Shown piece by piece: positions 37,554-61,367 of a stretch of 64,000 nucleotides of DNA. Source of the DNA: a virus (taxonomy: Duplodnaviria > Caudoviricetes); IMG/VR virus record IMGVR_UViG_3300031953_000001; one strand, given 5' to 3'. A program made the position numbers and the translations under genes. Numbering within the stretch: position 1 is the first letter of the stretch; each line of letters starts with the position of its first letter. The notes beneath the pieces were generated by a model. It was not told the origin of the DNA and ran no database searches. It saw only the letters and a list, made by a program, of their open reading frames with translations.

Positions 37554-37603
37554 GGGTTGATCTTACCAACCCAAGTTCTCTTTAAGGTGAGTCTCTGGGT
37601 AAA

Positions 37604-38367: not shown

Positions 38368-38487
38368 TGCCTATACATACGTGGGTCTCGCCGTGCGTAA
38401 TTCGTAACAGGTCGGCCTGCTTTGTATGTCAAGCACAACACGCGTGTTTAGAAATGTACCAACCAAACCAACTAAGGGATATTCCTA

Positions 38488-38958: not shown

Positions 38959-39152
38959 TAAACCTGAGCATCGAACTGGCCTGGGGGTAACAGCCCCCAG
39001 GCTTTATGCCGTGGTCTCTTATACCCGGTGCCATCGGTTGTTTTTTGTGTGTCTGAGTGTGTTTCACTCGGAATTGTATGACACAGACCAACTCGGCCGT
39101 CGCCGGGTACTTGACCACACGACGAGGAGCTACTTTCGTCTGGAGGATTGTC

Positions 39153-39815: not shown

Positions 39816-39833
39816 CGGAGGTACCACCGCCGA

Positions 39834-40298: not shown

Positions 40299-40310
40299 GC
40301 GAGTGCTGGT

Positions 40311-40697: not shown

Positions 40698-41086
40698 TGT
40701 TAAAGAAGACCTTATTTGAAATACACGATGAAGACCGGGCCTTAACCATAGAGCAGCTCGCAGAAGCGGTCCACGAGGCCAACCGCGCCTATTGCCTTGC
40801 ACAAGGCGACCAAAGCCAGCCCTCCTGGGATGCGTGCAGTGAGGACGTCCGTGCAGGCACTCTCGACGGGGTAGTGTTTCATCTGGATAATCCAGAAGCC
40901 ACCGCCGATGGGTCTCATGAGAACTGGATGAACCATAAAACACAAGAAGGTTGGACGTACGGCGAGGTTAAAAGCGAAGCCGATAAGACTCACCCCTCAA
41001 TTGTTGCGTTCAACGACCTTCCTGAAAAGGAAAAGGTCAAAGACTATCTGTTCGAATGTTTGGTACGGACCCTCAGTAGTTTCTGA
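40697..41086 (+). CDS. RyR (ryanodine receptor Repeat12/34) domain protein
   Basis: LAEAVHE...HENWMNHKTQEGWTYGEVKSEADKTHPSIVAFNDLPEKEKVKD; TGATG coupling to the upstream stop. Confidence 0.8.
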   Translation: MLKKTLFEIHDEDRALTIEQLAEAVHEANRAYCLAQGDQSQPSWDACSEDVRAGTLDGVVFHLDNPEATADGSHENWMNHKTQEGWTYGEVKSEADKTHPSIVAFNDLPEKEKVKDYLFECLVRTLSSF

Positions 41087-41090
41087 AAAC

Positions 41091-41127
41091 CGCATAAGAG
41101 GAGAGGCTTCGGCCTCTCCTTATTTTT
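41091..41127 (+). terminator. intrinsic terminator
   Basis: cgcataa-gaggagaggc-ttcg-gcctctcct-tatttttt. Confidence 0.85.
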
Positions 41128-41194
41128 TGTCTCGATAACACGAAGACGTAAAATAGGGGAGCCCTGAGGCTCCCCTGGGTGTGCTTCACTGCGT

Positions 41195-42067
41195 TTAGCT
41201 TTCGCCTACACCGCTCTGCGCTGCCGCTGCAAGATCTTCCTTGTAGCCGCTCTGAACCGCTGCATTGACGTTCGCATCAATCGCGTTAACGAAAGCGGGA
41301 CGTTGCATTGGGCCTGCATTGACGTAACTGAGCTCATCCAGAATGGTCTGGGCAAACCGACGTGTACCTTGGCTGACAACAGGCATGCCTGCAAATTCAA
41401 CCGACAATTCTGGTACGTCAGCACCTGCGGTCAGGTCCATCTGAGACTCAAGTTCCCCTGCGGTCATTGGGAACATGTTGGTTACCAACCAAGCTTCCAC
41501 CACGTGACGACGCAGCGGATCGGGTTCAATGTACAGCGTTGTAAAGCTGTAAATGTCCGCCAGCTGATCCGTCGGGGGGTTTTCCCCACTCATGATGCCA
41601 GGTTGTTTGGTGATGGGTTCTGCGATCAAGTTCCGAATGTAAGCCTGCCAGAAGTTATGGATGGCTCGACCATAGCGCTCATCCCACACGTGTGTGGGAG
41701 TAGACATGGTTTCGGTGACGTTGGTCGGATCGCGTTGCATGTGACCCGCACCGCCTACCGGACGCTCGGATGATTCAACCGTCAACCCGGTCCGAAGACC
41801 GGTGATGTTCTTTGACTGGTTTTCGATCAGAGATTTAAGAACCGCCACCCACTTCTGTGGATTGGGTAGGTTCTGGAAGCCCCGAGGGGCCTCCACTAAG
41901 ATCGGAATCAAGTTCCGGGGCGTATACCCGGTGTTGGATACGTAGGCCCCAAAGTCCGGCTGAAAGCCGTACTGACCGCCGAGCGAAACGTCAATCATAG
42001 GCGTTTGACCATCTCGCCCTTGGTTATACGCCTGCGCGTCGATCAGGGTACCTTTGAGTCGTGACAT
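41195..42067 (-). CDS. tail tube protein (phiKZ gp30-like)
   Basis: 290 aa directly downstream of the sheath gene; GGQYGFQPD, YSFTTLYIEPDP, WLVTNMFP motifs. Confidence 0.8.
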   Translation of the reverse strand: MSRLKGTLIDAQAYNQGRDGQTPMIDVSLGGQYGFQPDFGAYVSNTGYTPRNLIPILVEAPRGFQNLPNPQKWVAVLKSLIENQSKNITGLRTGLTVESSERPVGGAGHMQRDPTNVTETMSTPTHVWDERYGRAIHNFWQAYIRNLIAEPITKQPGIMSGENPPTDQLADIYSFTTLYIEPDPLRRHVVEAWLVTNMFPMTAGELESQMDLTAGADVPELSVEFAGMPVVSQGTRRFAQTILDELSYVNAGPMQRPAFVNAIDANVNAAVQSGYKEDLAAAAQSGVGES

Positions 42068-42092
42068 AATTCAATACTCCGTTGACGATGGA

Positions 42093-44162
42093 TTAACCGG
42101 CGAAGTCGCTGCGGCGACGGGCGACGATGGTGTAGGTACCGACGGTCATCATGTTGTTTAAGTACAACGCGATGTCACAGCTCCAGGAATACCCCAAGGC
42201 ATCATCGAAATCGGTGAAGTAGGTCCGAGGCTCTACAATCACACGATCGTCGAATCGATCTTGCGTCTTGTCGATGATCAGTTGGTTGCTGCGCTCAATG
42301 AACTGCTCGCGTGTCAACTTGCTGGTACCGGTCAGTTCACGCCAAGCCCGCTCGGCGACTTTCTCAATTTCAACGATGATCATCATGTTGATGGCGGAGT
42401 TGAGTACCGAGGTGGAGTCGTCGTACACCGTTTGCACGGCTGGGAAGAACAACGACCGACGGTCAAAGTTCTGTACCCACACCAAACCGGAGTCCCAATC
42501 GCGATCGTACACCCGTTGTGGCTTGTAGGTGCAGTTGACGTCTTTGAACATGGTGATCTGGTTGTACGGCGCAGTATCAAACCCGCGATCGCGTGCCCAG
42601 TAACCGTTGCCGGCGCCCATGAACCGAGACATCTTATCCGCAAGCTCCAAAGTCAAAGGCAGTAAGCCTTTGTATTGACTGTTGAGCATGTGTCCGGAGT
42701 GACCCACCACCAGAGCCCGACACACAGGGGTGCCAAAGACTTCGGATTCTGGGTACATACGTGCAGCAGCACGCAGGGCAATAGCGACGGAGGTCTCTTC
42801 TTCCGCGGTGTTCTGACGGAAACCTGGGGTGGTGACGTCTTGAGTCGAGAGGATCACCGAGATGTCTTTACGACGGCCGATTGGCGTCAGCATCTTCTTC
42901 TTAGTGTCCAACGTGAACCCGGTGTCCCAAATAATGGACTGTGGGTACATGGCACTGTCGAGGAAGTTAAAATCCAGATCGCCGTAGTTGACCAACTGAT
43001 TGGCAACCAACGCATCGAACGTAACGTTGTCCAAAGAACCATCAAATCCGCCGGTGGCGTAATGGTTGGTAGAACCCGTCAATTCAATACCGCCTTCGGC
43101 TTTGCCCAACACCTGGATGGTGTGGTACTCAACGCCGCTGACGGTTTTGCCGCCAACGATGTTGACCAGGTGACGCCCTACGTCTGCATCTGCTGGCCAC
43201 TCAGGTTGATGCACAAGCTCGGTGTTGTACAGCATGTCCAGAATCGTCTGGAGGTTGTCGTGGTAAACGTGTAGGCCGTTGAACGGACCAAACTGCTTGG
43301 GTGCGTTGTCCAGATCGCGGTACGCATCCAGTAAGATCTGATCGATGAACAGTTCACTGTCGGTGCGGGTGTTGATGGCGCCTTCTTTAAACGAGAACTG
43401 CACACTCTGAGAACCGGACATGGTTTGCACCACGTTGGGTTGACTCTTAGCGTCAGGACGCTCGATCATCTGAATGCGATACAAGAACGCATTTTGGTCA
43501 GCGATGACTTCTTCATCGGCGGGGTCGGACGCAGATTCGGTGGTCGGAGCCCAAAGACGGATGCCTTTTAGGTTACCATGAGAACCGAAGTCAGCGACTT
43601 GCAGATCGGCGATGGGGTAAATAGTGGATTGCGCTGTGTCGCCTGCGTTTGACAGAGACCCAGCCATGGATTGACCCGTACCGATGGCATTGTCCGTCAG
43701 CTCACGCAGAACCCAACGGGTTTTGTGGCCAGGGATCATATCGCCAGTAGGAATAGGGTTGCCGTCCTGATCCAGAGTCAGGCTGTCGTCGTCTCCCCGT
43801 TCGTACACCGGGACGTCATCGGCAAGGACTTCCAGCGCCAGACCCAGAGTGGCAGGCGGTGCTGCGTCCTCAGGCTTCATGCGCTGAATCATCATCGCGT
43901 TACCATTGCCATTGACAATGTTGGTCAACAGAGTTTGATGGTTGGCGTACTTACTGCGTACATCAAACGTTTTCGCACCGTACATCCGGGTGGCGGAACC
44001 ACCAGAGACTAACTGGGCGTCTAACGGCCCCTTTTCTGTGAACAGAAAAATATGCGGCAGGTGGGAAGGGATCTGTTCCGGAACAACCGGAAGTATACCT
44101 CCAGATTCGTCCTTAACCCCTTGCAAAATCGCCTTAGGGGCGGCATTCAAGATGGCGCTCAT
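42093..44162 (-). CDS. tail sheath protein (phiKZ gp29-like)
   Basis: 689 aa; PSHLPHIFLFTEKGP, DTGFTLDTK, SEVFGTPVCRA, FFPAVQTVYDDSTSVL. Confidence 0.85.
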   Translation of the reverse strand: MSAILNAAPKAILQGVKDESGGILPVVPEQIPSHLPHIFLFTEKGPLDAQLVSGGSATRMYGAKTFDVRSKYANHQTLLTNIVNGNGNAMMIQRMKPEDAAPPATLGLALEVLADDVPVYERGDDDSLTLDQDGNPIPTGDMIPGHKTRWVLRELTDNAIGTGQSMAGSLSNAGDTAQSTIYPIADLQVADFGSHGNLKGIRLWAPTTESASDPADEEVIADQNAFLYRIQMIERPDAKSQPNVVQTMSGSQSVQFSFKEGAINTRTDSELFIDQILLDAYRDLDNAPKQFGPFNGLHVYHDNLQTILDMLYNTELVHQPEWPADADVGRHLVNIVGGKTVSGVEYHTIQVLGKAEGGIELTGSTNHYATGGFDGSLDNVTFDALVANQLVNYGDLDFNFLDSAMYPQSIIWDTGFTLDTKKKMLTPIGRRKDISVILSTQDVTTPGFRQNTAEEETSVAIALRAAARMYPESEVFGTPVCRALVVGHSGHMLNSQYKGLLPLTLELADKMSRFMGAGNGYWARDRGFDTAPYNQITMFKDVNCTYKPQRVYDRDWDSGLVWVQNFDRRSLFFPAVQTVYDDSTSVLNSAINMMIIVEIEKVAERAWRELTGTSKLTREQFIERSNQLIIDKTQDRFDDRVIVEPRTYFTDFDDALGYSWSCDIALYLNNMMTVGTYTIVARRRSDFAG

Positions 44163-44203
44163 TCGAGCCTCCTTTTTAACTAACCATGGTCAGAGTCAGA
44201 TTC

Positions 44204-44230
44204 TATGATCGATGCCGTCGCATCTTCATA
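44204..44230. promoter_or_regulatory. pair of opposed TATG late-promoter motifs
   Basis: ttcTATGa at 44204-44207 (+) and ttcTATGa at 44230-44227 (-) between divergent structural operons; phiKZ late promoters have TATG at -3..+1. Confidence 0.5.
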
Positions 44231-44297
44231 GAATTACAGACGCATTTGACCGGAATGTGGAAATTAACAGGTCTTTATCTTACATCGGAGTGTAACT

Positions 44298-45194
44298 ATG
44301 TTTATCTCACCCTACCACACGACAGCGTGTCGCAACCATCGGATGGAGGACATCCACCGTGAACTCACCAACCTTTTCTTACAAGACGAACTGCGTCATC
44401 TCAACGGTCGTGTTTATCTGGTAGGCGATGAGCATACACAATTAAAGCCGTTCGCTCACCCCATCGTCATGGCTAATCCACACAACCGGCGCGACACAAT
44501 CATTGTCGCCGACAGCCGGTCGGTGGCTAGGGCCTCACGTGAGACCGGTGAACTTAAAGGCGGTTCCGATTTTGAGTACCTGAAGCTTCGAAGTCAGTTA
44601 ATGGACCTTGCCTGGATCGACGGGACTGGTAACGACCTGCTGAACGCTGGCGACTTTCAAGTCCGCGTGTATTCTCGGTTGATGGCGGAGAACCTGGGTC
44701 GACGTATGAACCTGTCGTTGGATACCCAAGCCACGATACAAGTAATCGCAGCGATGTTTTACATCTCGCTGTTTTACGACGAGCTGCCAGAGGGTGAGGA
44801 ATTCCTTTTGAAGTCGGCCAAACGCATCAGTCGCTCTGTGGGTATTCCCGTGCCGACTGTGTTGGCTCTCATCGAAGAAATCCCGCCCATGAAAGATCTG
44901 ACGGCGTTTACTGAAACACTGGTGACGCACGGTCACAGCGTTCGATTAGAGAAACTCAAGCCTGGGTTCTTGTACACCATGCTTGGGGGGATCTGGTTCG
45001 GGGCCCACAGCGTTGAGAACGTTGCCGTGGCGTTGGAACACCCACCCACCTTTTGTGCCATGCTGCAATTGGTCGTGTTGGATCGCAGTTATCGTAAGAG
45101 TATTCTCGGACAATTGATCCAAAGGATCGACCGCCGCAACGAATTGGGCGAGACCTTTTCATACCATCTGCAAAGGATGGTTTCCGTATCGTAA
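44298..45194 (+). CDS. virion structural protein (phiKZ gp28-like)
   Basis: 298 aa; MFISPYHTT start, W.G....E.VAVALEHPPTF; synteny. Confidence 0.7.
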   Translation: MFISPYHTTACRNHRMEDIHRELTNLFLQDELRHLNGRVYLVGDEHTQLKPFAHPIVMANPHNRRDTIIVADSRSVARASRETGELKGGSDFEYLKLRSQLMDLAWIDGTGNDLLNAGDFQVRVYSRLMAENLGRRMNLSLDTQATIQVIAAMFYISLFYDELPEGEEFLLKSAKRISRSVGIPVPTVLALIEEIPPMKDLTAFTETLVTHGHSVRLEKLKPGFLYTMLGGIWFGAHSVENVAVALEHPPTFCAMLQLVVLDRSYRKSILGQLIQRIDRRNELGETFSYHLQRMVSVS

Positions 45195-45212
45195 CCGACG
45201 TAGGATCGTGGT

Positions 45213-47783
45213 ATGTTAGATTATCTCGTGAAGCACGCGGTGGACAACGTCTGGTGTTCGCCCGAACAAGACCGACAAGTGATCATTCGCCCCAAGCGCC
45301 TGAGCCATCGCTTGGGCGCTCTGGGTCTTCAACAGGTGATGTGGGAGCGCATTAAGTTACCCACCCAAGGCGACTATTACCACGTCTTTCAGATCGGTCA
45401 CGTGCACCCTATACTGCTAGGTCTTCATGGTGTCGATGACGATTGGGTTCGACTGGACAGCATCATCAATACCACCACCTTGATGGCGGAAGTGTATTTT
45501 GGTGACGGCGTGGTCTTACCCAGAACCGAAACCTGGATCAAGTACGATCGACATAAAAACTTGATTGTGGCCATTCCAGACACACGGATCTTCAGGCGAC
45601 TGCGAGACGACGGCATCTACTGCCGAGTTTACAGCAACGCCTACTTCGAATCCCATCGGGCCAACGCCACCACCGAAGGCACCTTCATCGAAGGGTTAAC
45701 CGTCAGTGCGGCCTCCGACGTCTTGACTTTGCAACAGAAGTATCATCTGGCTTTGGTTAAACCTGGAACCGCATACGCGTATCATAACGGCTGGTTAGTC
45801 AACGATCTGAGACCCAGTCGCATCGCAGTGGGAGACAAGATAGAATACGTCTACGACAGTTCTATCTACCGCACCATCAACTTCCCTATTTCAGAACTGG
45901 GGACCTTCGACAGTACCTTAGACCTCAAGCGCAAGTACCTATTGAATTACGCGCTGTTCGACAACGAACGTATCGATTTTGAAGACGACGTCGATATCTA
46001 TCTGGTCAAGCGGGATGAACAAGGTCGGGAACGGGGCATCTACTACCACCGCAATAAGAAAGACGCAATACGCATGTTGTCCCACAAAGACTATGCGATC
46101 CCAGTGTCCTACGTGGACGGCTTCCAGCAAGCCCACGAATCCGTGTGGTCCAACATGAACGATCTGTCGGTACGGGTGTACGTGCGCAAAGCCGGGTTTG
46201 ATCGACCGTTGATTCAAGAACACCACCGGTTGTTTGAATTGTATCGGTTGGACGCTGAAAGTGTGAAGCGGGCTATGTTGGGGGTAGACTCCACCGTCAC
46301 TGTGTGGCAAGCGGCTGCCTTGGAGGCCAGTCCCTACGTAGCGCTGATGCGGGCCAAAGACACCGGTCTTAACTCCTTGTCGGTGCAAGAAGCCTACGGG
46401 TATAACGCCGTGTCGCGGTTGGTGGGGGATACTCCTCAAGCCGTGCGAGTCACTGCCAACGGACCCATGGTGGATCTGAAGCCCGGTCATTGGGAAGAGA
46501 CCACCCTGTACGAGTACAGCGCTCAAGGGAAATTGTTGGGCTACTATTTTCACGCTTCAGGATTGGAATACGTCTGTCGACACCCAGAGACTGCTCTGGT
46601 AGAAGCTGTGGTTGGGGAGGTCTCTGAGTCCTTGGACATGACCTCCGGAGAACTCATGGTCTCAACCGACAAACGGTATAACTACCGAGCGTATCTGTGC
46701 ACCCGCTTAGGTGATCAGTTATTGTGGGATTGGGTCGACGTCAGTAACTCCGAGATCCTGTCGGTGGGTGGTGGTACTCTCAATTTTACAGTGGACTTGC
46801 AGACCGATTACCCAACGGTGATCAGCGACAAACGGTTCATCGGGTACCAAGTACCGGTACCGGTGGCCAACGGTGTCTTGACCTTGACCGTCAGCAGCAA
46901 CGAAACCCATTTGGGTGAAACGGTAAGACGCACCATGACCGTTCCGCCCAGAAGGTTGGATCTGTGGTTGAACGGTCATCCGCTGATCGAGGGGTTGGAT
47001 TACCACGTCGATTTCCCTGAGGTGGTGGTGGTCAATAAGCAATACTTGACCAACGCTGAAAATCAGTACCTCGACGTTCGATGTCAAGGGTTCTGTGCAT
47101 CGGATATGAAAACAGAAGCCCCACGGGAGTCTGGGTTTGTAGAACACGGGTACCTGAGCAAAGACCGTCAGTACAACGTGCGGGATGACAAGGTGGTGTC
47201 TTTCATTGTCGGGGGTAAGTTAACCTTGCGCTCGGAATTGGACTTTGCGGAAGACAACTCCGGTATCTCCGTGTCCCGGGTAGCCAATGGAACGCCTTAC
47301 GTCATACGTGAAACTATAGTACCCATGCGCGGTGAGACCTATTTGGACACCTACAACTTTCGGGCAAGATCCATAGCCGTTGACACGGAGATTGAGGCTT
47401 ACCTGACGTTGAAGTACCCAGAGCCGGTAATCCCAGGGCCCAGTCCTATTCTTGAGCGTTATGCCGTCTACAGTCCGTTTTTAAGTCGAATCATCAACGA
47501 CCTGCAAGAAGGTTACATTGATGAGAGTCGGTTAAAGACACCTTACTCCAACGCTGAGGTTTATGAGCTGGGACGTTACTACGAGTTCTTGTTGCCCTTT
47601 GATCCGGCGAATTTAGGCGTGGACGATCGGTACGTGGCCATACACCCACATCGGTTCTTAACGCCGGTGCCTTTGAGTATTTATCAATACAACTTTGTTC
47701 AACGAATCAACGCGCTGTATTTTGACAACGCCATCTCGCTGAGCCAATTCATTGAAGTTCAACTCCCTCAGACGCAGGAGTAA
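45213..47783 (+). CDS. virion/baseplate structural protein (phiKZ gp27-like)
   Basis: 856 aa; NVWCSPEQDRQ N-terminus; synteny. Confidence 0.75.
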   Translation: MLDYLVKHAVDNVWCSPEQDRQVIIRPKRLSHRLGALGLQQVMWERIKLPTQGDYYHVFQIGHVHPILLGLHGVDDDWVRLDSIINTTTLMAEVYFGDGVVLPRTETWIKYDRHKNLIVAIPDTRIFRRLRDDGIYCRVYSNAYFESHRANATTEGTFIEGLTVSAASDVLTLQQKYHLALVKPGTAYAYHNGWLVNDLRPSRIAVGDKIEYVYDSSIYRTINFPISELGTFDSTLDLKRKYLLNYALFDNERIDFEDDVDIYLVKRDEQGRERGIYYHRNKKDAIRMLSHKDYAIPVSYVDGFQQAHESVWSNMNDLSVRVYVRKAGFDRPLIQEHHRLFELYRLDAESVKRAMLGVDSTVTVWQAAALEASPYVALMRAKDTGLNSLSVQEAYGYNAVSRLVGDTPQAVRVTANGPMVDLKPGHWEETTLYEYSAQGKLLGYYFHASGLEYVCRHPETALVEAVVGEVSESLDMTSGELMVSTDKRYNYRAYLCTRLGDQLLWDWVDVSNSEILSVGGGTLNFTVDLQTDYPTVISDKRFIGYQVPVPVANGVLTLTVSSNETHLGETVRRTMTVPPRRLDLWLNGHPLIEGLDYHVDFPEVVVVNKQYLTNAENQYLDVRCQGFCASDMKTEAPRESGFVEHGYLSKDRQYNVRDDKVVSFIVGGKLTLRSELDFAEDNSGISVSRVANGTPYVIRETIVPMRGETYLDTYNFRARSIAVDTEIEAYLTLKYPEPVIPGPSPILERYAVYSPFLSRIINDLQEGYIDESRLKTPYSNAEVYELGRYYEFLLPFDPANLGVDDRYVAIHPHRFLTPVPLSIYQYNFVQRINALYFDNAISLSQFIEVQLPQTQE

Positions 47784-49586: not shown

Positions 49587-50831
49587 GTGGTGTTAACTAT
49601 GCTAATTGAAAGCAAGAAGTATCGTGGGTTTTTTGATGTGCCGGGGGCACCGGGATACCTAGTAAACCGAAGTGGCGAATTCATCCTCGCGATAGATGGC
49701 AGTAAAATCAACGTCGGTAGCCGAAAGGTGGGTGTTTTAACAGTAAACTTTAAAATAAATGGGCGTTGGATTAAGCGTAGCGTAGCGAGAATAATTGCAA
49801 AGCTGTTCGTTGATGTACCGACTGAGTTATCTAACCAACGAGACACTCTACTGATCGACTACGTGGATGGAGACCGGTGGAACGTTGCAGTAGATAACCT
49901 TATATGGGTGACGTCGTCTGAACTTCAAAAGGTAGCTTTCAAACGGAAGATAGAACGTTTTCGCCAACAACACCCCGGATCTATTGCGGATGGCAAGAAC
50001 GATAGATATCCGTATGCAATTGAGTGCTTCACGTTACCTGGATACTACTACTTACCGAATTTAAGTAATCCGGTAGTAATATCTAAGTTAGGACAAATTG
50101 TCAATCTGGAAACCGGAGCTGAACATCATACCAGAGTAGATAAGAAAGGATACCTTACCACCGCATTATACAACCAAGATCAAGGCAGATATATACAGGT
50201 TAAGGTTCATAGATTGGTTGCTAGGTTGTTCTCTCCTATTCCGCCTCGACATTCCGAGAGGGCCTACGATGATCTACAGGTTAATCATCTGGATGGAGAT
50301 AAACTAAACAACTACTATGAAAACCTAGAGTGGGTGACTAACGTTGAGAATATGGACCATGCTAGGAAGGCAGGGCTGTTCAGTAATGAAATCACGGTAT
50401 TGGCTAAAAATATCCAAACGGAAGAGATATCTAGATACGTATCGATTTCTGAGTGTGCTAGAACGTTCTTAATGTCCGCTAGTGTATTATGCAAACATCT
50501 TAAATCATCGTCGGCGGGTATGATCCCTAAAGAAAGCCATGTTTTCAAACTTGACGATGATTCTCCATGGCCAAACTCGATAGCTGAAGTAGATACGGAA
50601 AACGGGTTCTATGCCAAATGCGACGTTGTGGCAAAAAACCTAAATACTGGTAAGTCGGTTATTTGCAGCAATTTAGCGCATGGCTGCAGGATATTGGGTT
50701 TAAATAAGTATACTGTCATGAACATTAGATCCCGTCAAGGAGTAGACTGGCCGGTTAAAGGTTGGGTATTTGTGTCGGTAGCCGAATTCAAACGAACAAA
50801 GGGGACGTACGTTGATAATCTTCAAATCTAG
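49587..50831 (+). CDS. free-standing HNH homing endonuclease with two tandem HNH-like units
   Basis: Degenerate unit (IDYVDGDRWNVAVDNLIWV) and intact unit (KVHRLVA...VNHLDGDKLNNYYENLEWVTNVENMDHA); AT-richer than flanks; alternative ATG at 49599. Confidence 0.85.
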   Translation: MVLTMLIESKKYRGFFDVPGAPGYLVNRSGEFILAIDGSKINVGSRKVGVLTVNFKINGRWIKRSVARIIAKLFVDVPTELSNQRDTLLIDYVDGDRWNVAVDNLIWVTSSELQKVAFKRKIERFRQQHPGSIADGKNDRYPYAIECFTLPGYYYLPNLSNPVVISKLGQIVNLETGAEHHTRVDKKGYLTTALYNQDQGRYIQVKVHRLVARLFSPIPPRHSERAYDDLQVNHLDGDKLNNYYENLEWVTNVENMDHARKAGLFSNEITVLAKNIQTEEISRYVSISECARTFLMSASVLCKHLKSSSAGMIPKESHVFKLDDDSPWPNSIAEVDTENGFYAKCDVVAKNLNTGKSVICSNLAHGCRILGLNKYTVMNIRSRQGVDWPVKGWVFVSVAEFKRTKGTYVDNLQI

Positions 50832-52959
50832 TTGGCGAAAATACCCTCGGGCGATTATCGATAGCAAAACACCAAACACCACCTTTTTGCGCTTGGCCTC
50901 GGTCTATCGCGCTATGGGTGTGGATCATTATTACTTTCACTTGGCGTTACTTCAACCTGAGCTTCAGGGGATAGACCCTCACAATGAAGACGCGTTGACG
51001 CTTGAGCAGAAAGCCATGATTTTGTACGAGTGCGATAACAACCCTTGGTATTACCTGAGGGAGATCGTGCTCGATAAAGGCGCAGGTTTGGAAATCGACG
51101 ACTGTCGCTTTCGAGCCAATCGCTCTAACATTGCGGCTATGTGGTTGTTGCTGTCGTGTGTTGACTACATTCAAATACAACCACGGCAGACCGGTAAGTC
51201 CTTTGGTACCGACTGCAACTCTTTGTGGTTGATGTATTTTTGTTATCGCAACACGGCACTGAACCTGATCACTAAAGATGAGTCTTTGCGCAAATCCAAC
51301 ATCGCTCGGTTGAAGAAACTCCGGGATATGTGGCCAGACTTCATTAACCGCAATACGTCCAAAGACGACAACAACCAGATCTCCTTGTCGTGCAACATGT
51401 TGGAGAACAAATACTACACCCACGTCTCCCAAAGTTCTGAGAAAGCCGCGAACAATCTGGGTCGGGGGATGACCAGTCCGTTTATCCACGTGGATGAGGG
51501 TCCGTTCATCAACCACATAGAGACCACGGTCAGCGCGGCTATGGGTTCGACCAACATGGCGCGGGAGATTGCCAAGCGCAAAGGCAAGCCGTATTGCACA
51601 GTGTTCACCACCACAGCCGGCAACCAAGAAGACCGGGATGGGCGTTACGTCTTTAACATGATGGCAGGGTCGGCAATCTGGACCGAGCGTTTCTTTGACT
51701 GTGTGAACCGAGAGGAGCTGGTGGGTTACATCAAAACCAACTCCGATGGGCGGGCCACCATGGTGAACCTGACCATGTCGCATCGTCAGTTGGGGTTGTC
51801 CGATCAGTGGTTGTACGAGGCCTTGGCCAACGCGCGCTCGGAAAGCGACAACATCGACCGAGATTACTTCAACCGTTGGACCAACAGCTCATCGACCTCC
51901 TTGATTCCAGAACACCTAGCTAAGGCCATGCGGCAATCGGAGAAAGAACCCGTCAGCAGTTGGATCTCCTCGGAGAATTACATCTTTCGCTGGTACACCG
52001 AAGTCGATGCGAGTCGCCATTACGTGTTGGTGGTGGATACCTCCGATGCGATCGGACGAGACGACATTGGTGTGGTGTTGTTGGATTCGCACACAGGCGC
52101 TGTGGCCGGTGCCGCGGCGTTCAACGAGACCAACCTCATTCGGTTTGCCCAGTGGTTGAAAGAGTTCTTGTTGAAGTATCGCAACAGCACCATGGTGATC
52201 GAGCGACGTTACAACGCACAAACCATCATCGACTACCTATTGTTAAAACTGCCAGAAGCGGGGGAAGACCCCTTTAAGCGGCTGTTTAACCAAGTGGTGC
52301 AAAAACGCGAAGAGCGGCAGAAGGATTTTGATCGGGTCATGGGTCCTGGTCTTAACCGCCCTAGAAACATGTACGATCAATACCGTCGAGACTTCGGGTT
52401 TGTGACCGATTCGGAAAGTCGGAAGTTGTTGTACTCCAACGTGTTGATGAACGCGGCTAAAGATGCAGGGGACCGTGTCAACGACAAGCAGTTGATTCAA
52501 CAGGTGCTGTCTTTGGTCATTAAGAACAACCGGATAGACCACACCTCCGGTGGACACGATGACATGGTCATTGCGTGGTTGATTGGGCATTGGTTCTTAA
52601 ACCACGGCATCAATCTGGCGGCCTATGGGTTGAACCCAGCAAGCGTCATGACCGACCGGGCTCGAGGGGGTAAAGAACTCACTCCCACGGAGGAGTATGA
52701 GCATCAAGAGCAAAAGGCATTAATGAGTCACATTGAATCCATCCATGAGCAGTTGAAGGTGGTCAGTGGACGAATGGACATTCTTAGACTAGAGGGGGAG
52801 ATGACCGCAGCCATGTCTCGACTTAAGAGCGACGATTCAGACGGTGTGACTTTGGATGCTCTTTTACAAGAAGCCAAGGACACCCGCGATCGACGTTTGT
52901 ATGGGCGCCAAGGTGCCCCTAATCGAACTCGGATGCTGTTGGAACGTTATGGACGTTAA
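50812..52959 (+). CDS. terL: terminase large subunit (phiKZ gp25-like)
   Basis: Walker A QPRQTGKS, Walker B IHVDEGPFI, TTTAG, nuclease VVDTSDA and GHDDMVIAW; TTG start. Confidence 0.92.
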   Translation: MIIFKSSWRKYPRAIIDSKTPNTTFLRLASVYRAMGVDHYYFHLALLQPELQGIDPHNEDALTLEQKAMILYECDNNPWYYLREIVLDKGAGLEIDDCRFRANRSNIAAMWLLLSCVDYIQIQPRQTGKSFGTDCNSLWLMYFCYRNTALNLITKDESLRKSNIARLKKLRDMWPDFINRNTSKDDNNQISLSCNMLENKYYTHVSQSSEKAANNLGRGMTSPFIHVDEGPFINHIETTVSAAMGSTNMAREIAKRKGKPYCTVFTTTAGNQEDRDGRYVFNMMAGSAIWTERFFDCVNREELVGYIKTNSDGRATMVNLTMSHRQLGLSDQWLYEALANARSESDNIDRDYFNRWTNSSSTSLIPEHLAKAMRQSEKEPVSSWISSENYIFRWYTEVDASRHYVLVVDTSDAIGRDDIGVVLLDSHTGAVAGAAAFNETNLIRFAQWLKEFLLKYRNSTMVIERRYNAQTIIDYLLLKLPEAGEDPFKRLFNQVVQKREERQKDFDRVMGPGLNRPRNMYDQYRRDFGFVTDSESRKLLYSNVLMNAAKDAGDRVNDKQLIQQVLSLVIKNNRIDHTSGGHDDMVIAWLIGHWFLNHGINLAAYGLNPASVMTDRARGGKELTPTEEYEHQEQKALMSHIESIHEQLKVVSGRMDILRLEGEMTAAMSRLKSDDSDGVTLDALLQEAKDTRDRRLYGRQGAPNRTRMLLERYGR

Positions 52960-53374
52960 TGTTTGGAGACTTAAAGGTAAGAGCCACTGCCGTCGGTGGT
53001 GGTCGTTGTGGTTGAGGCGACTTGCTACGACGATGTCCAGTACCGTGTGGACCGATCACTACCGCCGGCCAGGAAGTACGGTAGGGGCACCTTACCCATT
53101 ACACGTGGAAGTGCAGTGCGTTCAGCTCAATTACGAGTTTGGCAAACAGATGGGACTTCGGTTGGCAGTGAAGATGACAGCACTGATCGTCATTGAACAC
53201 TACCTTACTGAGGATCTACGTCCACGTCAGTCAATCAACCGATACTACGGCCTCACTCGGTCTCAATTACTCAAGGTGTTGCGTCACGAGTTGCCGTGGG
53301 TGGATGGGTTGCCTAATGGCGCGGCAGGCGAAGACCGTCAGTACGATCGCCGCCCTCCTAGAGATGTTGCTTAA
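52949..53374 (+). CDS. hypothetical protein
   Basis: ORF filling the gap between terL and the HDOD gene; start uncertain. Confidence 0.4.
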   Translation: MDVNVWRLKGKSHCRRWWSLWLRRLATTMSSTVWTDHYRRPGSTVGAPYPLHVEVQCVQLNYEFGKQMGLRLAVKMTALIVIEHYLTEDLRPRQSINRYYGLTRSQLLKVLRHELPWVDGLPNGAAGEDRQYDRRPPRDVA

Positions 53375-53406
53375 TTCAATCCATCAGTACGTTAAAGGAA
53401 TACCGA

Positions 53407-54840
53407 ATGAGTCGTTTCACATCGTTCTTTAAACCCAAGCGACTTTCAAAACAAGTCGCCGAAACGATCGCCCCTCCAACGCGAGCTCCAATCGACGTTC
53501 CGCTACCTTTAAGACGGTACTTTGAGGCATCGACCTACATCCCAGTGTATTTAAGCGACGACGTCTTACACCCGGTGGTGAAGATGGTGCAACTCACGTG
53601 TGAGGACGGTCCCGGGCAGGTGGTGTTTCGAGAAGACAGTTTGTTGGATCTGGATTTGCTCCAGAGACACAGTGGCAAACGGTTTCATCGCATGGATCGG
53701 AGTCAGTATCGTCAGGTGTTGGGTGAGGTGGGGGTGAACCTGATCCCACCCATGCCAAGACTGACCTGTGCCTGTACCTGGGTAGACTACAGAGTCGATG
53801 ACTTAGATAGCGCTTTGGTGGATCTTACAGGGCAACGAGAGTACGCGGTGGTTTCTAAAGTCATGTTGATGGATTGGCTGAAAGATAACCCTAGGGTAGA
53901 TATCGCCATGTCCATGTTACAATTGAACTCTGATGACGGCTCTATACAAAACGACACCGATTGCATCAACGGGGCGATTCGTAAACTGACCAAGCTGCGC
54001 ATAGAACGGCGCCTGGTGGACACTTTGGAATTGCCTCCGTTGCCCGACATCGCTCGTCGATTGATCGAGTTACGCAGCAACCCTCAAGGCAACCTCATGG
54101 ATCTGGTGGAGGCGATTGAAAGCGATCCTATTCTATCAGCGAACGTGCTTCGTTGGGCTAACTCGTCACTCTATGCGACGACAGTCAAGGTCGAGTCCGT
54201 AACCGACGCTGTGGGACGAGTGTTAGGGTATGACATGACCATGAACTTAATGATGGGTCTGGTGTTAGGTCGAGTGATGGACGTCCCTGACCATACCCCT
54301 ACGCATGTGTTGGGGTTTTGGGAACAGTCGATCTGGGTGGCACACGGCGCGCGCGCGGTGAGTAAACTCTTACCCTCAGACCGTCACGTCCCGCACGGCT
54401 TGGCGTATTTAACCGGGTTGTTGCATAATTTTGGGTACTTGATTCTTAACCACGCGTTTCCACCGCATTTCCGTTTGATCACCGAGTCAACTGACATCAA
54501 CCGACACATAGACGTCAGTTTGGTGGATGCGCACATCCTAGGCATCACTCGAGAGCAGATAGGTGCGGAGTTGTTGCGCAACTGGATGATCGGTGAGGAT
54601 GTGGTGACTGGGGTACGTTATCACAAGCGTATTGAGTACACACATGAGGCGACTTACGCCAATCTGATTTACTTGACTCGGGGAGTGTTGATGAAACACG
54701 GGGTTCTGTTGGGGGCTAGATACACCGTTCCTCTGGCTTTATATACTTACTTAGGTCTATCGCCTGAAGCCGTAGACGATTGCATAGTGGCTTTGTTGGA
54801 ACACAAAGACGAGATTTTAGGTATGGCACATCGGGTGTGA
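53407..54840 (+). CDS. YbaK-like + HDOD domain protein, SadB-like
   Basis: HDOD motifs LPPLP, IESDPILSANVLRWANSSLY, FWEQS, AYLTGLLHNFGYLIL, ILGITREQIGAELL..W; N-terminal region resembles the YbaK-like part of Pseudomonas SadB (recall); 477 aa. Confidence 0.8.
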   Translation: MSRFTSFFKPKRLSKQVAETIAPPTRAPIDVPLPLRRYFEASTYIPVYLSDDVLHPVVKMVQLTCEDGPGQVVFREDSLLDLDLLQRHSGKRFHRMDRSQYRQVLGEVGVNLIPPMPRLTCACTWVDYRVDDLDSALVDLTGQREYAVVSKVMLMDWLKDNPRVDIAMSMLQLNSDDGSIQNDTDCINGAIRKLTKLRIERRLVDTLELPPLPDIARRLIELRSNPQGNLMDLVEAIESDPILSANVLRWANSSLYATTVKVESVTDAVGRVLGYDMTMNLMMGLVLGRVMDVPDHTPTHVLGFWEQSIWVAHGARAVSKLLPSDRHVPHGLAYLTGLLHNFGYLILNHAFPPHFRLITESTDINRHIDVSLVDAHILGITREQIGAELLRNWMIGEDVVTGVRYHKRIEYTHEATYANLIYLTRGVLMKHGVLLGARYTVPLALYTYLGLSPEAVDDCIVALLEHKDEILGMAHRV

Positions 54841-54877
54841 CGGCATAGGGGAGGGCTTTCGCCCTCCCCATATGCTG
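54841..54877. terminator. bidirectional terminator
   Basis: cggcata-ggggagggc-tttc-gccctcccc-a-tatgctg between convergent genes. Confidence 0.85.
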
Positions 54878-54889: not shown

Positions 54890-56164
54890 TTAGAAGACGC
54901 TGGAGACAAGTTCATCCGCACGTGACTCCATGGCTCCCCCTTGACTGTAGTAGCTCATGGTGAAGGTCCTAAGGACGATGTAGATCATACATCCCGTTCT
55001 AACAGACGCCAGCAACGATTTGTTGTTTGACCTGACCGCCCGCTTGGTGATGGCCAACGACAAATCACGCATCTTCATCAAGGCCGGATCACTGGAACGT
55101 GACGACATGTACAAACTGCGCAACCGAGAGATCAACACCGACAGATTGATGCTGTTACGAAACACCTGACGATTCTCGCTCATGAACTCAAATGCATGAA
55201 TCAAGGTCTCATCGATCAACTCGCCAATCTTTGGATCACCTCGGCGACCGTAGTTGTCGGCCATGTACTCCAAGGCCGTTATTAGGTGTCGATCGGGCAG
55301 GGTGTGCATGACGTCAGAGACGATCTTCACCAGCTCCGGACGAATGAAGGTCTGACGGTCACTCAGGGCGCTGTGGATGTACCGTTTGAACTGGCTGCTT
55401 TTGCGCGACAGATCACGGACGTGCATCTGACCGTCCAAGTCAATCAACGATGAGCGAGTCTGTACCCGAGAAGAGCTCTTCTTCACCTCGTAAAAGACGT
55501 GTACCATCTTTTTCACGATTTCCCGAATCCGACCTTGGACGTCGGTGAGCACGTAGAGGATGTCCTTGTCGTTGTCGTAGCGTGCAATGGTGTTGGCGTG
55601 TATTGAGTTACGGGATAAGATGTCTTCGCAACGCGCGGTGATCAAGGCTGTCCAGCTGCCTTTTTGTTTCAGTGCAAACTTGTAACTCAAAGCTGCGTAA
55701 GTGGCCTCGACTATCGAGCGATCGGGCTCGTATGGGAAGTTGTGTGCCATCAATGAACTCAAGTACCGGTAATGCAGAATCCTTAGAGTGTCCATCATCC
55801 CCTGCTCCCGTTGTCGGGCAGACAGGGAGCTGCTGGTCATCAACGCGTGCAACATCCACACAATCGAGTGGGAGAACACATCGCTCTGCACGTTTCGTTC
55901 AGGGTGGATGCTTGGCAGCGAGTGCAACTCGGTCTTCAGAGCCACGTCGTCAACTTGCATGATCTCATCGAACCACAGGTTCCGCTCGGAGTTGTGGAAT
56001 CGTAACGCTGGGGTTCCTAAAAGGTTGCCGCCTAAGAAGGCGATGTGGTTTTCGTTTTTGTTCACGAAGTGGCGTTCAAACTGACTGATGGTCTTCACAA
56101 GCTTGAGATCGATCTTCAGGTGTTTCATCTCTTGCTCGAAAACCTCACGGATGGTACTTGCCAT
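54890..56164 (-). CDS. conserved virion protein (phiKZ gp32 / SPN3US gp262-like by position)
   Basis: 424 aa; FLGGNLLG, LK..GSW, YYSQ motifs; lies after the terminase as in SPN3US-like phages (recall). Confidence 0.6.
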   Translation of the reverse strand: MASTIREVFEQEMKHLKIDLKLVKTISQFERHFVNKNENHIAFLGGNLLGTPALRFHNSERNLWFDEIMQVDDVALKTELHSLPSIHPERNVQSDVFSHSIVWMLHALMTSSSLSARQREQGMMDTLRILHYRYLSSLMAHNFPYEPDRSIVEATYAALSYKFALKQKGSWTALITARCEDILSRNSIHANTIARYDNDKDILYVLTDVQGRIREIVKKMVHVFYEVKKSSSRVQTRSSLIDLDGQMHVRDLSRKSSQFKRYIHSALSDRQTFIRPELVKIVSDVMHTLPDRHLITALEYMADNYGRRGDPKIGELIDETLIHAFEFMSENRQVFRNSINLSVLISRLRSLYMSSRSSDPALMKMRDLSLAITKRAVRSNNKSLLASVRTGCMIYIVLRTFTMSYYSQGGAMESRADELVSSVF

Positions 56165-56399
56165 ACGGGGCCTCGTCTCTGGGTTTGTTGTCTATATGAT
56201 CGGGCGTCAACGGCCCCGCGGGGGGACCGGCCAGCTGATCCCCTTGTGAGGGTATCAAAGGTATCACGGGGGGGTGTAGATCTTTGGTCTGTTCTGTATG
56301 GGTTGTTTCTTCTGTGATCGATGCATCCGTTCTGTTACCCTCATCCATACAAAAACCCAACTCATCTATTATTCTTTACAGGACGGATTTATTATTTGC

Positions 56400-56807
56400 T
56401 AGAAAGAGGAGCGTAAGCGACCAGCCTTTCGAGCCCTACGTTTACGTAGGGCGTAGGTGGCAACGTAGTAAGGAGGGGTAGCGATAGTGTGCGTCTACGC
56501 AATATGGGGTTATTGCTAAAGCGTGCACCACGACCCCAAGTTCCTCCTATGGTATAGCGCGTTAAGCGCGCTCGTGCTTAAGGTTATCGTTGGGGTAACG
56601 GGTTTGCGATGACCTTAAGTGTGCTGGTGTCCAGAGAACCCTTTGTTGAATAAACACAAGTTTGTACGGGTTACTTGTGTTTGGGTAAATTACGGCGGTT
56701 ACAGGTTGTGTTTGCCTTGCGTTGGTTCGCGATGGCCGTTACCTACGGGGTTCTCTGGACGGGGCTTAGTAAGTCGCATGAGGAGGCTCAGGCCTCCTCT
56801 TATGCCG
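56400..56807 (+). ncRNA. candidate structured non-coding RNA
   Basis: At least seven helices of 6-13 bp in an ORF-poor region, with G.U pairs that work only on the + strand; ends in a terminator-like hairpin. Boundaries uncertain. Confidence 0.5.
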
Positions 56808-56877
56808 ATTCCAACAAAAGACAGACCTATATAACAAAGGTGAGTTACCCATACGAACCTTTAGAAGGAAGTCCATT

Positions 56878-57997: not shown

Positions 57998-58089
57998 CGG
58001 CATAGGGGAGGGGCATTCGCCCCTCCTCTTATTTTTTGTCTTAATCCTATGTCCCCACCGGACATTCCACCATTAGGACATAATTACCC

Positions 58090-59301
58090 ATGGCAACTTT
58101 ACAAGACCTTCAGACCAAACGTGACGAGCTTAACTCAGCGATCGTGGCTTACACTCAGGCGGTACAAGCCGGCGTTCAGATCGACATAACCACCACCAAA
58201 GCCGCAGCTCAAGCCAAAGGCGATGAATACGCCAAGTTAATCTCTCAGGTTAAGCAAGACGACCCAGCCGTCACCAACGACGATCAGCTGTTCAGCCGCC
58301 CTGCGGCCATGAACGCCTTAGCACGTCAAGATGTGGCAACGATTATGACGACAGGCCGAATGTTCGGCGCTGGCATGAAGTTACTCGTTGACACCGAAGG
58401 CAATGCATCAGGTGCTACTAATGTGATCTTGTCGTTTGCCGCCGGTAGCGACGTCACCATCGATTGGGGTGACGGTACTGGCTATCAGGCGTACACTGGA
58501 GCTGCATCTCACAACTACGCGACTCCAGGTCAGTACACCGTGGAAGTCCACGGCACCGTCAACGGTTTCACCACCGCACTAAGTGAAAACCGTCAACAGA
58601 TCAAAGACGTCATGCAATGGGGTTTGTTAGAGTTTGCTTCTACTGCCATGATGTTTCAACAACGCCTTGGGTTTGTGATCAGCGCTTCCGATGGGCCGAC
58701 GATCTTACCAGGCGCCAGTTGCGCTCAGATGTTCTACAACGCTAATGATTTCAACAGCAACATCGACCATTGGGACATGGGCAACGTCGTTAACATGTAC
58801 TACATGTTTAGTTTCGCCACGAACTTCAACCAACCACTCAACGGTTGGAACGTCAGCAACGTCACTGACATGGCCGGGATGTTCTTTAACACACTCGGGT
58901 TCAATCGACCGATCGGTAACTGGGACGTCAGCAACGTCACTGACATGTCTCGCATGTTCTACAAAGCCAACGCCTTCAACCAAGCTCTGAACGCCTGGAA
59001 CGTCGGTAGTGTTACTAACATGTTATTCATGTTCAGAGACGCCACGAACTTCAACCAACCACTCAACGGTTGGAACGTCAGCAACGTCACTGTCATGAGC
59101 GATATGTTCAATCAAGCCGACGCTTTCAATCAACCGTTGTACTTGTGGGATGTAAGTAGTGTTACTAGCATGCCATATATGTTCGCCAACGCTGACTCCT
59201 TCAACCAAAACCTCAGTGGTTGGAATGTGAGTCAAGTGACTTCGTACACCGGGTTTAATGTTAACAGCGCATTGGTCGCTGGTAACGTACCTAACTTCTA
59301 A
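58090..59301 (+). CDS. DUF285/BspA-type repeat protein, paralog D (7 repeats)
   Basis: Same N-terminal module, PKD-like domain and repeats; TATG at 58048-58051; terminators on both sides. Confidence 0.85.
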   Translation: MATLQDLQTKRDELNSAIVAYTQAVQAGVQIDITTTKAAAQAKGDEYAKLISQVKQDDPAVTNDDQLFSRPAAMNALARQDVATIMTTGRMFGAGMKLLVDTEGNASGATNVILSFAAGSDVTIDWGDGTGYQAYTGAASHNYATPGQYTVEVHGTVNGFTTALSENRQQIKDVMQWGLLEFASTAMMFQQRLGFVISASDGPTILPGASCAQMFYNANDFNSNIDHWDMGNVVNMYYMFSFATNFNQPLNGWNVSNVTDMAGMFFNTLGFNRPIGNWDVSNVTDMSRMFYKANAFNQALNAWNVGSVTNMLFMFRDATNFNQPLNGWNVSNVTVMSDMFNQADAFNQPLYLWDVSSVTSMPYMFANADSFNQNLSGWNVSQVTSYTGFNVNSALVAGNVPNF

Positions 59302-59302: not shown

Positions 59303-59338
59303 CGACATAGAGGAGGGCTTGCGCCCTCCTCGTATTTT
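59303..59338. terminator. terminator between convergent genes
   Basis: cgacata-gaggagggc-ttgc-gccctcctc-gtatttt. Confidence 0.8.
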
Positions 59339-60407: not shown

Positions 60408-61367
60408 ATGTCTAAGAAATTACGAGTATTTGGCTGTGGCGGTGCGGGTATTAACCTGGTGACTCATTACTTCGGTAAAGACGCCGAAGCGGGCATGGCC
60501 GAGATGGCCCCAGCGCTGATCGACACCAGTCGCTCTAACCTTATGGGCCGTAAGATTGACGAGGACTCCACGTACTTGGTAGAAGGCTTGGATGGCTCCG
60601 GTAAGATCCGCTCCGAGAACTACGACTCTATCAATAAGACCATCAAACAGATCCTGGTTCAAATCCCCCCCTGCGATATGAACGTAGTGGTGTTCAGTGC
60701 CTCAGGCGGCTCCGGGTCAGTCATCGGTCCGCTGATCATTAAGCACCTGAACGAGAAACAGATCCCTGTAATCGCGATGGTCATCGGCAGCGACGAATCC
60801 ACCATCGCCGCAGAAAACACCCTCAAAACCATCAAGTCGTTGGAACTGGTGGCTAAGAACTCCAACATGCCGGTCATCATGTCGTTCCACAAAAACGATT
60901 TGGCTGGTCGGCGTTCTGACGTGGATCGTTCCGTGTGGTCAGTGATTTCATGCTTGAGCATTCTGTCGTCTGGCCAAAACGCTGAGATGGACTACCGTGA
61001 TCTGGTGCATTGGGTACAGTACACTAAGATCAACGGCGGCCGCGCTCAACTGGCAACCATGCACGTGGCTACTTCAGCCGAGCACATGAAACGCATCACC
61101 TCACCTTTGTCGGTTGCCAGCTTGTACGGCAACCCGGATCAGGAACACCTGGCCACCTCGGCGGATTACCAGTCAGTGGGTTACACCGATCTGTCCAACA
61201 CCGATTTCGATCAGATCCACTTCGTCATCGGCGTGAACGACTTGTCCCGTATAGGACGGGATTTAAAGTCACAGGTAAGTCAGCTGTTAGAAGAACGAGG
61301 CGCTCGGTTGGACGTTGATTCCATCCTCGACTCAGAAGACAACACCGATCAAGACGTTGTGCTATGA
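60408..61367 (+). CDS. phuZ: PhuZ phage tubulin
   Basis: GCGGAGINL, IDTS.SN, GLDGSGK.R, tubulin signature SASGGSGS, acidic C-terminal tail; AGGAG upstream. Confidence 0.93.
   Translation: MSKKLRVFGCGGAGINLVTHYFGKDAEAGMAEMAPALIDTSRSNLMGRKIDEDSTYLVEGLDGSGKIRSENYDSINKTIKQILVQIPPCDMNVVVFSASGGSGSVIGPLIIKHLNEKQIPVIAMVIGSDESTIAAENTLKTIKSLELVAKNSNMPVIMSFHKNDLAGRRSDVDRSVWSVISCLSILSSGQNAEMDYRDLVHWVQYTKINGGRAQLATMHVATSAEHMKRITSPLSVASLYGNPDQEHLATSADYQSVGYTDLSNTDFDQIHFVIGVNDLSRIGRDLKSQVSQLLEERGARLDVDSILDSEDNTDQDVVL

Follow-up and report, generated by a model that had tools for sequence, protein, structure and literature searches.

A predicted two-domain SadB-family protein encoded downstream of terL in a jumbo phage from Alaskan cryopeg brine

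The SadB family, with members in Gammaproteobacteria of the Pseudomonadales/Oceanospirillales type, is known, and two of its crystal structures are available: 9QZK, deposited as Pseudomonas aeruginosa SadB (PA5346) by Ben-David et al. 2025 (PMC12075610), and 3MEM, a structural-genomics entry for Maqu_0641 of Marinobacter nauticus/aquaeolei VT8. P. aeruginosa SadB binds a motif near the C terminus of AmrZ (Q91, A94, and L95) and triggers rapid, mainly Lon-dependent degradation of AmrZ (PMC12075610). It is active at barely detectable levels, requires both of its domains, and pulled down Lon, AsrA, and PepA (PMC12075610). SmiA of Bacillus subtilis, a Lon adaptor for SwrA, was cited as an analogy (PMC12075610); what is shared is that an adaptor directs Lon to a master regulator of motility/biofilm, and the likeness is an analogy only. 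A SadB-like gene (P0001) was analyzed here at positions 53407 to 54840 on the plus strand of a 64,000-nucleotide (nt) stretch, referred to as the window, of the virus record IMGVR_UViG_3300031953_000001 (Duplodnaviria; Caudoviricetes). A preliminary description of this gene, made from the sequence, had proposed a captured host regulator of the motile-to-sessile switch, of a kind not known to be described in jumbo phages. In agreement with the latter point, no description of such a phage gene was found in INPHARED records, and no paper on a phage SadB or HDOD regulator in the searchable literature (subscription journals not covered).

The gene starts with ATG at position 53407, ends with TGA at positions 54838 to 54840, and encodes 477 amino acids (aa). 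The following features were assigned to it from the open reading frame (ORF), from alignments, and from an AlphaFold2 (AF2) model with its predicted local distance difference test (pLDDT) values.

53395-53399, plus strand: Shine-Dalgarno sequence AAGGA, read from the sequence, with the ATG 7 nt downstream
53407-54840, plus strand: SadB-like gene P0001, 477 aa (ORF translation, Pfam, phmmer, AF2 model)
53407-53490, plus strand: phage-clade-specific N-terminal extension, residues 1-28, M-S-R-F..F..K-L-F-G-x-K (alignments, pLDDT)
53491-53931, plus strand: YbaK/ProRS-like N-domain, approximately residues 29-175 (alignment with the 3mem and 9qzk N-domains; alpha/beta fold in the model; Foldseek)
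54031-54630, plus strand: HDOD domain core, residues 209-408 (Pfam PF08668, E value of 5.9e-42)
54418-54435, plus strand: LLHNFG, a degenerate HD motif (HN), residues 338-343 (family alignments; same motif in 3mem and 9qzk)

The translation and the Pfam match bear out the 477-aa protein with a full HDOD domain that had been described, and the helical C-domain runs beyond residue 408 to the C terminus. Searching the Protein Data Bank (PDB) with phmmer revealed 3mem (E value of 1.9e-97, residues 57 to 474) and 9qzk (E value of 1.8e-78, residues 50 to 468); both matched chains have 457 aa, and the first 50 to 57 residues of the query lie outside the alignment. Identity to P. aeruginosa SadB is 33% over approximately 430 residues. 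The AF2 model, generated from a 30-sequence alignment, has a pLDDT of 84.9 and a predicted template modeling score of 0.82. Its superposition on 9qzk gave template modeling (TM) scores of 0.86/0.89 with a root mean square deviation of 2.1 Å over 432 columns, and that on 3mem gave 0.82/0.86. When the N-domain of the model was searched by itself, Foldseek matched YbaK/ProX folds (TMt of ~0.55 to 0.6). The YbaK-like family PF04073 was matched weakly in 16 of 30 relatives; the Pfam search gave no PF04073 match in P0001 itself. The presence of a YbaK-like N-domain, as previously claimed, is thus confirmed at the level of full-length homology to two solved SadB-family structures, the predicted model, and the weak PF04073 matches in relatives. 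No match of the SadB-like protein was found in NCBIfam or PHROGs.

The preliminary description had also noted HN in place of HD. The LLHNFG motif is present; however, it is not specific to the phage. Family alignments show no variation at N341 and G343, and at least 90% of the sequences have H340. The invariance of N341 indicates that HN is a trait of the SadB family and not a sign of decay in the phage. Judged from this motif, the phage protein has the degenerate metal site of the SadB family. It does not resemble HD-GYP or HD phosphohydrolases in this respect, as HN replaces HD and no Pfam HD match was obtained in P0001; Foldseek matches to HD-GYP/PgpH were weak (TMq of ~0.2). Stand-alone HDOD proteins (3HC1, 3M1T, 3I7A, and Xanthomonas GsmR/HdpA) and HDOD-only phage genes share the helical HDOD domain but have no YbaK-like domain and are 22 to 33% identical over the HDOD part alone, and 3HC1 retains a di-iron site that is lost in SadB-type proteins. 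Comparison with SadB orthologs by homology and phylogeny gave SadB proteins as the best, full-length matches, with 858 relatives at an E value of ≤1e-10 among the scored candidates. Sequence comparison and modeling therefore confirm the identity as a two-domain (YbaK-like plus HDOD) SadB-family protein, with a probability of roughly 95% that the phage has in it a functional member of this family.

The closest sequences among 5.8 billion proteins are metagenomic proteins of 476 to 478 aa with 48 to 61% identity, followed by Marinobacter proteins with 37 to 43% identity. A maximum-likelihood tree of 82 sequences (LG+C20) placed seven phage proteins in one clade with a support of 100/100, and separated phage plus Marinobacter from all other genera with a support of 99/100. 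This grouping recurred with thinned sampling, and cellular sequences elsewhere on the tree follow taxonomy. The stem of the phage clade is 1.4 to 1.6 substitutions per site long. The tree indicates one old capture from a Marinobacter-lineage donor and points to a single event in an ancestor of the phiKZ-like phage clade. The proposed host origin of the gene is therefore upheld, although the long stem and the phage-specific features show that the capture was not a recent one. The earlier hint at a Pseudomonadales/Oceanospirillales host was right and is sharpened by the tree to the Marinobacter lineage.

Maqu_0641 and its Marinobacter orthologs, with 39 to 43% identity, are the closest cellular relatives. 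They differ from the phage genes in being vertically inherited, located after recG, and 453 to 459 aa long, in having no extension, and in branches 5 to 10 times shorter. Marinobacter sadB directly follows recG (e.g., L017:799-4281, M. nauticus), whereas the phage gene is located between terL, the large terminase gene, and a convergent gene of the phrog_2921 family. Because it does not follow recG, the phage gene is considered a xenolog of PA5346 and Maqu_0641 and not a positional ortholog. P. aeruginosa SadB shares with the phage protein the two-domain fold, LLHNFG, and a similar length; the phage gene differs in its position away from recG, the extra N terminus of ~28 residues, and its long branch with substitutions particular to the clade.

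The SadB-like gene showed a proportion of nonsynonymous differences (pN) of 0.20 to 0.34 against a saturated proportion of synonymous differences (pS) of ~0.72, and neighboring core genes showed a pN of 0.07 to 0.22. The ratio of the corresponding rates (dN/dS) is unreliable because dS is saturated, and pN and pS are reported instead. The SadB-like gene is under purifying selection and evolves at about twice the rate of core genes. Cellular SadB proteins have 112 columns with a conservation of at least 90%, and the phage clade keeps 93 (83%) of them. The N-terminal extension of ~28 residues is basic/hydrophobic and occurs in seven of seven phage-clade proteins; it is missing from nearly all aligned cellular proteins. 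It is predicted to be disordered, with a pLDDT of <50 for residues 1 to 21. Sequencing runs with the gene number at least 19 and come from several studies.

The gene occupies a defined slot in the phage genome. The elements of this locus are as follows.

50812-52959, plus strand: large terminase gene terL (PHROG phrog_2/phrog_32359), first gene of an apparent operon
52961-53374, plus strand: small orphan ORF (ORFan) P0269, 137 aa, sharing the insertion slot; the terL stop abuts its start
54848-54869, no strand assigned: perfect 9-bp GC hairpin GGGGAGGGC-tttc-GCCCTCCCC, 8 nt past the SadB-like stop, between convergent genes
54890-56164, minus strand: convergent conserved chimallivirus gene phrog_2921 (PHROG E value of 4.7e-135)

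The location after terL had been correctly recognized, with the 137-aa ORFan in between. The distance from the end of the ORFan to the start of the SadB-like gene is 32 nt, and this tight spacing implies one terL-ORFan-SadB-like operon, with transcription apparently ending at the hairpin. The same slot, with the order terL, small ORF, SadB-like gene, and convergent phrog_2921, was found in eight related phage contigs, in which the orthologs are intact and 476 to 478 aa long. Five of the eight also carry DUF7484 or PhuZ. The terL of the window is 79 to 82% identical to terL of SadB-carrying relatives; in one slot contig (L142) terL is much more divergent, and in a Tara Oceans scaffold the terL C terminus is only 55% identical. 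Among 39 IMG/VR terL relatives, all four complete loci with a terL identity of ~80 to 82% carry the SadB-like gene, and a fifth ends at terL; the gene is absent from two phages at 71% and from every phage at ≤45%. Because distant terL relatives do not have it, the SadB-like gene is regarded as an insertion and not as core equipment. In many distant relatives phrog_2921 lies close downstream of terL, with one small ORF between them in the two checked in detail, and the phrog_2921 gene marks the right-hand edge that the site had before the insertion.

The ORFan P0269 has no Pfam or PHROG match, and no homolog except itself was found among 5.8 billion proteins. Sequences with 34 to 39% identity occur in four SadB-carrying relatives (three distinct sequences). 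The ORFan was detected solely in SadB-carrying phages, at five of eight loci, and is absent from 32 terL relatives that reach past terL and have no SadB-like gene. An obligatory pairing of the two proteins was considered and dropped, since in one relative (L143) the ORFan has decayed to stop-containing remnants beside an intact SadB-like gene. A complex prediction for the SadB-like protein and the 137-aa ORFan gave a score of 0.00, which weighs neither way.

Upstream of terL, at positions 49587 to 50831 on the plus strand, a 414-aa HNH endonuclease ORF (PF13392; phrog_59) is located between a phrog_3430 virion gene and terL. It lies in a low-GC patch (0.47). In tblastn searches it was found in 0 of 39 terL relatives, and in two of them (L002 and L003) the flanking genes are only ~70 nt apart. 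This ORF looks like a recently arrived free-standing homing endonuclease beside terL.

A profile scan of IMG/VR revealed a second full-length SadB-like gene in a 202-kb phage with direct terminal repeats and DUF7193 (L138; UViG_3300048591_000242); a pattern scan of IMG/VR with a single sequence gave no match, so that the profile scan was needed. The L138 protein has 458 aa with LLHNFG and is without the N-terminal extension, and its gene is placed after thyA-folA, encoding thymidylate synthase and dihydrofolate reductase. The tree places it among Oleiphilaceae/Hahellaceae (97/91), with several strongly supported branches between it and the first phage clade; the long branches of the two phage lineages are not mutually attracted. 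L138 thus represents an independent capture by another phiKZ-like phage from an Oleiphilaceae/Hahellaceae-like donor. The two lineages have in common a full-length SadB-family protein with LLHNFG, a phage genome of roughly 200 kb with DUF7193, and a long branch; they differ in donor group and locus, and L138 has neither the extension nor an accompanying ORFan. Their shared changes at conserved positions number only about three (F194L, Q217R, and L377I), which is too few for interpretation.

Other phage matches are of different kinds. Pseudomonas phage YMC12/01/R24, the only candidate precedent from a cultured phage, was rejected, as its sadB differs from that of P. aeruginosa at 2 of 419 residues and is most likely host flanking DNA. 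In this over-long Mu-like Casadabanvirus record of ~46 kb (MH643778.1, positions 36672 to 46148), at least the last ~5 kb is P. aeruginosa chromosomal sequence, including sadB and HU-beta. Other large phages have HDOD-only proteins of ~296 aa that lack a YbaK-like domain, e.g., a 242-kb phage with direct terminal repeats and no DUF7193 match (L139:7995-8885; UViG_3300036762_000065), Dolichospermum phage Dfl-JY45, phage NCTB, Pseudomonas phage Y10, and Microcystis phage MaAM05, where the gene is annotated ribonuclease Y. Phages may have acquired HDOD domains more widely.

The IMG/VR record of the carrier has a completeness rating of 100%, a length of 222,493 bp, and direct terminal repeats. With a direct terminal repeat of 127 bp, the unique genome length is 222,366 bp. 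The carrier is vOTU43_CB18_222366, which Zhong et al. 2023 (PMC10405475) published as a complete, circular fatty-acid-desaturase phage of Alaskan cryopeg brine. A PhuZ tubulin gene is located at positions 60408 to 61367 (phrog_4733, E value of 6e-90). The neighborhood also contains DUF7193, a phrog_3430 virion protein, terL, phrog_2921, and DUF7484, and syntenic relatives carry phiKZ_gp29PR and PhiKZ_VTX. From PhuZ and the phiKZ-type core genes, the carrier is assigned as a phiKZ-like, PhuZ-encoding (chimallivirus-type, presumably nucleus-forming) jumbo phage. The host of vOTU43 was previously predicted as Pseudomonas (PMC10405475). The SadB clade branches with Marinobacter, a genus that makes up 53% of the cryopeg community (PMC7300359), and Marinobacter is therefore the more likely host. 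Probably the host is Marinobacter rather than Pseudomonas; the donor lineage need not equal the present host.

A "signal transduction gene" was listed among the most transcribed genes of vOTU43 (PMC10405475). A domain search of the genome revealed a single HDOD gene; it gave no domain of the response regulator, histidine kinase, GGDEF, or Ser/Thr kinase type, and the nearest named homologs of the SadB-like ORF are annotated as signal transduction proteins. For these reasons the published signaling gene is most plausibly the SadB-like ORF. In a brine metatranscriptome run, 71% of the k-mers of the gene were present in 100%-identical contigs. Over a 19-kb stretch of this run the depth varied from ~1 to ~195, i.e., ~200-fold, between neighboring phage genes, and such uneven depth argues for RNA and not carried-over DNA. 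Contig depths in this run cannot rank genes and were used for presence and uneven cover.

With respect to function, the phage protein would be non-catalytic like cellular SadB and would act by protein-protein contacts through both domains. As an adaptor it would bind a host regulator and pass it to host AAA+ proteases, mainly Lon. A phage-made SadB would thereby force the SadB-controlled switch of the host whatever host signals say, with an outcome that in Pseudomonas terms would be less motility, more exopolysaccharide, and more attachment; the fast-evolving phage clade may have retuned the choice of client. By analogy with P. aeruginosa SadB, an adaptor-type mechanism with an effect on surface behavior is given somewhat less than an even chance. 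The preliminary description stated the biology of SadB in a form that is now dated, since SadB has since been described as an adaptor delivering AmrZ to Lon (PMC12075610) and its link to cyclic di-guanosine monophosphate (c-di-GMP) is disputed. Its proposed consequences, i.e., shutdown of flagella or pili, superinfection exclusion, and a push towards biofilm, are inferences. On balance doubtful is the most far-reaching version, that phiKZ-like phages of marine Gammaproteobacteria repeatedly took SadB as a protease adaptor that turns host Lon-type proteolysis on a chosen host protein and locks the cell in a non-motile, exopolysaccharide-coated, attached state in subzero brine. The redirected target could be a surface-behavior regulator or another factor, e.g., a defense or stress regulator.

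Several observations weigh against an adaptor function. An AmrZ/Arc-family protein is absent from three Marinobacter genomes with SadB (G001 to G003) and present in two Pseudomonas controls. The only known SadB client thus appears to be missing from the likely host lineage of the phage, a further difference from P. aeruginosa SadB, and the wiring in Pseudomonas is not simply transferable. As the sole demonstrated client seems to be lacking in the donor lineage, the client of Marinobacter-type SadB would not be AmrZ, and the presence of SadB without AmrZ in Marinobacter indicates that the family must have other clients. In the phage clade, 19 of the 112 conserved columns are replaced, with clade-fixed replacements including Q246N, S249R, C359T, and E374D. 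Together with the long stem and the added extension, these fixed substitutions mean that the function may have shifted. Sharing an operon with terL suggests that the gene is expressed together with packaging genes, which would leave little time for a switch in host transcription. phiKZ-like phages largely bypass host transcription. In the RNA run the depth over the SadB-like gene was ~5 to 12, far under that over PhuZ (~182), so that high expression is not shown.

The same divergence fits a decoy or anti-adaptor, in which the phage copy would compete with host SadB or would engage Lon or a different protease but bring it no client. The host pathway would then be blocked or phage proteins shielded from Lon, an effect of opposite sign to that of an adaptor. 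The long stem, clade-fixed changes at invariant sites (e.g., SLAAQVVSWA to TLAANV(M/L)RWA), an N-terminal extension found in the phage clade alone, and the contacts of the SadB scaffold with proteases in the Lon, AsrA, and PepA pull-down (PMC12075610) are consistent with this role. However, the retention of 83% of the family-conserved columns across both domains fits a retained function, and the second capture, L138, has no extension. A decoy is accordingly considered unlikely.

A c-di-GMP receptor or sink, by which the phage would read or buffer the level of the host second messenger, is given only a slim chance. HDOD domains resemble HD-GYP phosphodiesterases, and a Kd of 0.23 µM for c-di-GMP was determined for P. 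fluorescens SadB by surface plasmon resonance in 2019 (PMC6543031). This result is contradicted by the P. aeruginosa study, in which SadB did not bind c-di-GMP by Biacore, the HDOD pocket was occluded with a single His, and 13 HDOD-pocket mutants kept function (PMC12075610). The phage protein carries the same degenerate HN motif.

A neofunctionalized role within the phage, e.g., helping packaging or assembly as a chaperone or adaptor, has a similarly poor standing. All relatives retain the tight terL-ORFan-SadB-like spacing, and the gene evolves fast relative to core genes. Its absence from 32 distant terL relatives (terL identity of ≤71%) argues that it is not packaging machinery; moreover, L138 was captured among nucleotide-metabolism genes and not beside terL, and the protein belongs to no PHROG family. 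Aminoacyl-tRNA deacylation via the YbaK-like domain would be suggested by the YbaK/ProX-like fold, the weak PF04073 matches in 16 of 30 relatives, and the NCBI name "aminoacyl-tRNA deacylase and HDOD domain-containing protein" of many relatives; it is highly improbable, as PF04073 is not matched in the phage protein, no such activity is reported for SadB, and the SadB papers treat SadB as non-enzymatic. Inert passenger DNA or an assembly artifact has a negligible probability, given an intact, syntenic gene in eight diverged contigs from different samples, a pN far below pS, and its occurrence in at least 19 sequencing runs.

The new elements are a conserved, selected, and fast-evolving SadB clade in jumbo phages with a phage-specific N-terminal extension, a recurrent independent capture, and the inference that SadB has clients besides AmrZ. 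Phage "auxiliary" genes are mostly metabolic, and host-derived regulators that rewire behavior are far less documented. A phage-made SadB could override the decision of the host to swim or settle, which would touch receptor display, exopolysaccharide (a cryoprotectant in brine), and how densely hosts occur locally. That jumbo phages captured such a gene twice, each time independently, argues for a benefit to its carriers. For vOTU43, already published and transcriptionally active in the cryopeg, Marinobacter replaces Pseudomonas as the likely host, and the search for SadB clients other than AmrZ could be aided by the phage copies and their hosts. If the far-reaching version above is true, the protein would be the first phage-encoded protease adaptor of the SadB kind and would provide a second, experimentally tractable client system for the poorly understood HDOD/SadB family.

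The preliminary description had assigned the gene its own terminator. The perfect 9-bp GC hairpin is located 8 nt past the stop codon as expected, but it has no T-run and is common to the SadB-like gene and the convergent phrog_2921 gene. It is followed by aTATGCT on the plus strand and by TATGCC on the minus strand. A classical terminator scan did not call this hairpin because of the missing T-run. Hairpins of the type GGGAGGGC-loop-GCCCTCCC followed by (C/T)TATGC(C/T), with no T-run and often with the motif on both strands, occur throughout the window (e.g., at 279-298, 15695-15715, 37612-37631, 54848-54869, 56780-56799, 58007-58026, and 59311-59330). TATG was found within 7 nt after GC-hairpin cores in 10 of 31 cases on the plus strand and in 14 of 31 on the minus strand of the window, compared to a background of 1%, a 30- to 45-fold enrichment. 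The GC hairpin plus TATGC probably serves this phage as a terminator or terminator-promoter signal of its own, and the hairpin at 54848-54869 is a putative bidirectional terminator of this phage type. DNA contigs from a large brine metagenome (run X20) match the window across this hairpin only and diverge on both sides, at positions 54838 and 54877. This suggests a co-occurring related phage that shares the hairpin and has flanking genes of <90% identity, perhaps the 230-kb sister vOTU105.

Two further regions of the window are notable. The stretch at positions 56046 to 56679 had the top contig depth in the metatranscriptome run X18, ~195 compared to 1 to 20 over most neighbors. It is located between phrog_2921 and the next gene and contains short ORFs only (56045-56317, 56284-56481, and 56619-56834); a non-coding RNA or a strongly expressed small gene may lie here. 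For the gene at positions 58090 to 59301 on the plus strand, encoding PKD and DUF285 repeats, several metagenomes as well as the RNA run contained population variants, especially at positions 58270 to 58600 and 58838 to 59039. Eight linked substitutions at positions 58475 to 58513, joints skipping 137 and 200 nt, and many loose ends were observed, and it looks like a hypervariable repeat-array gene.

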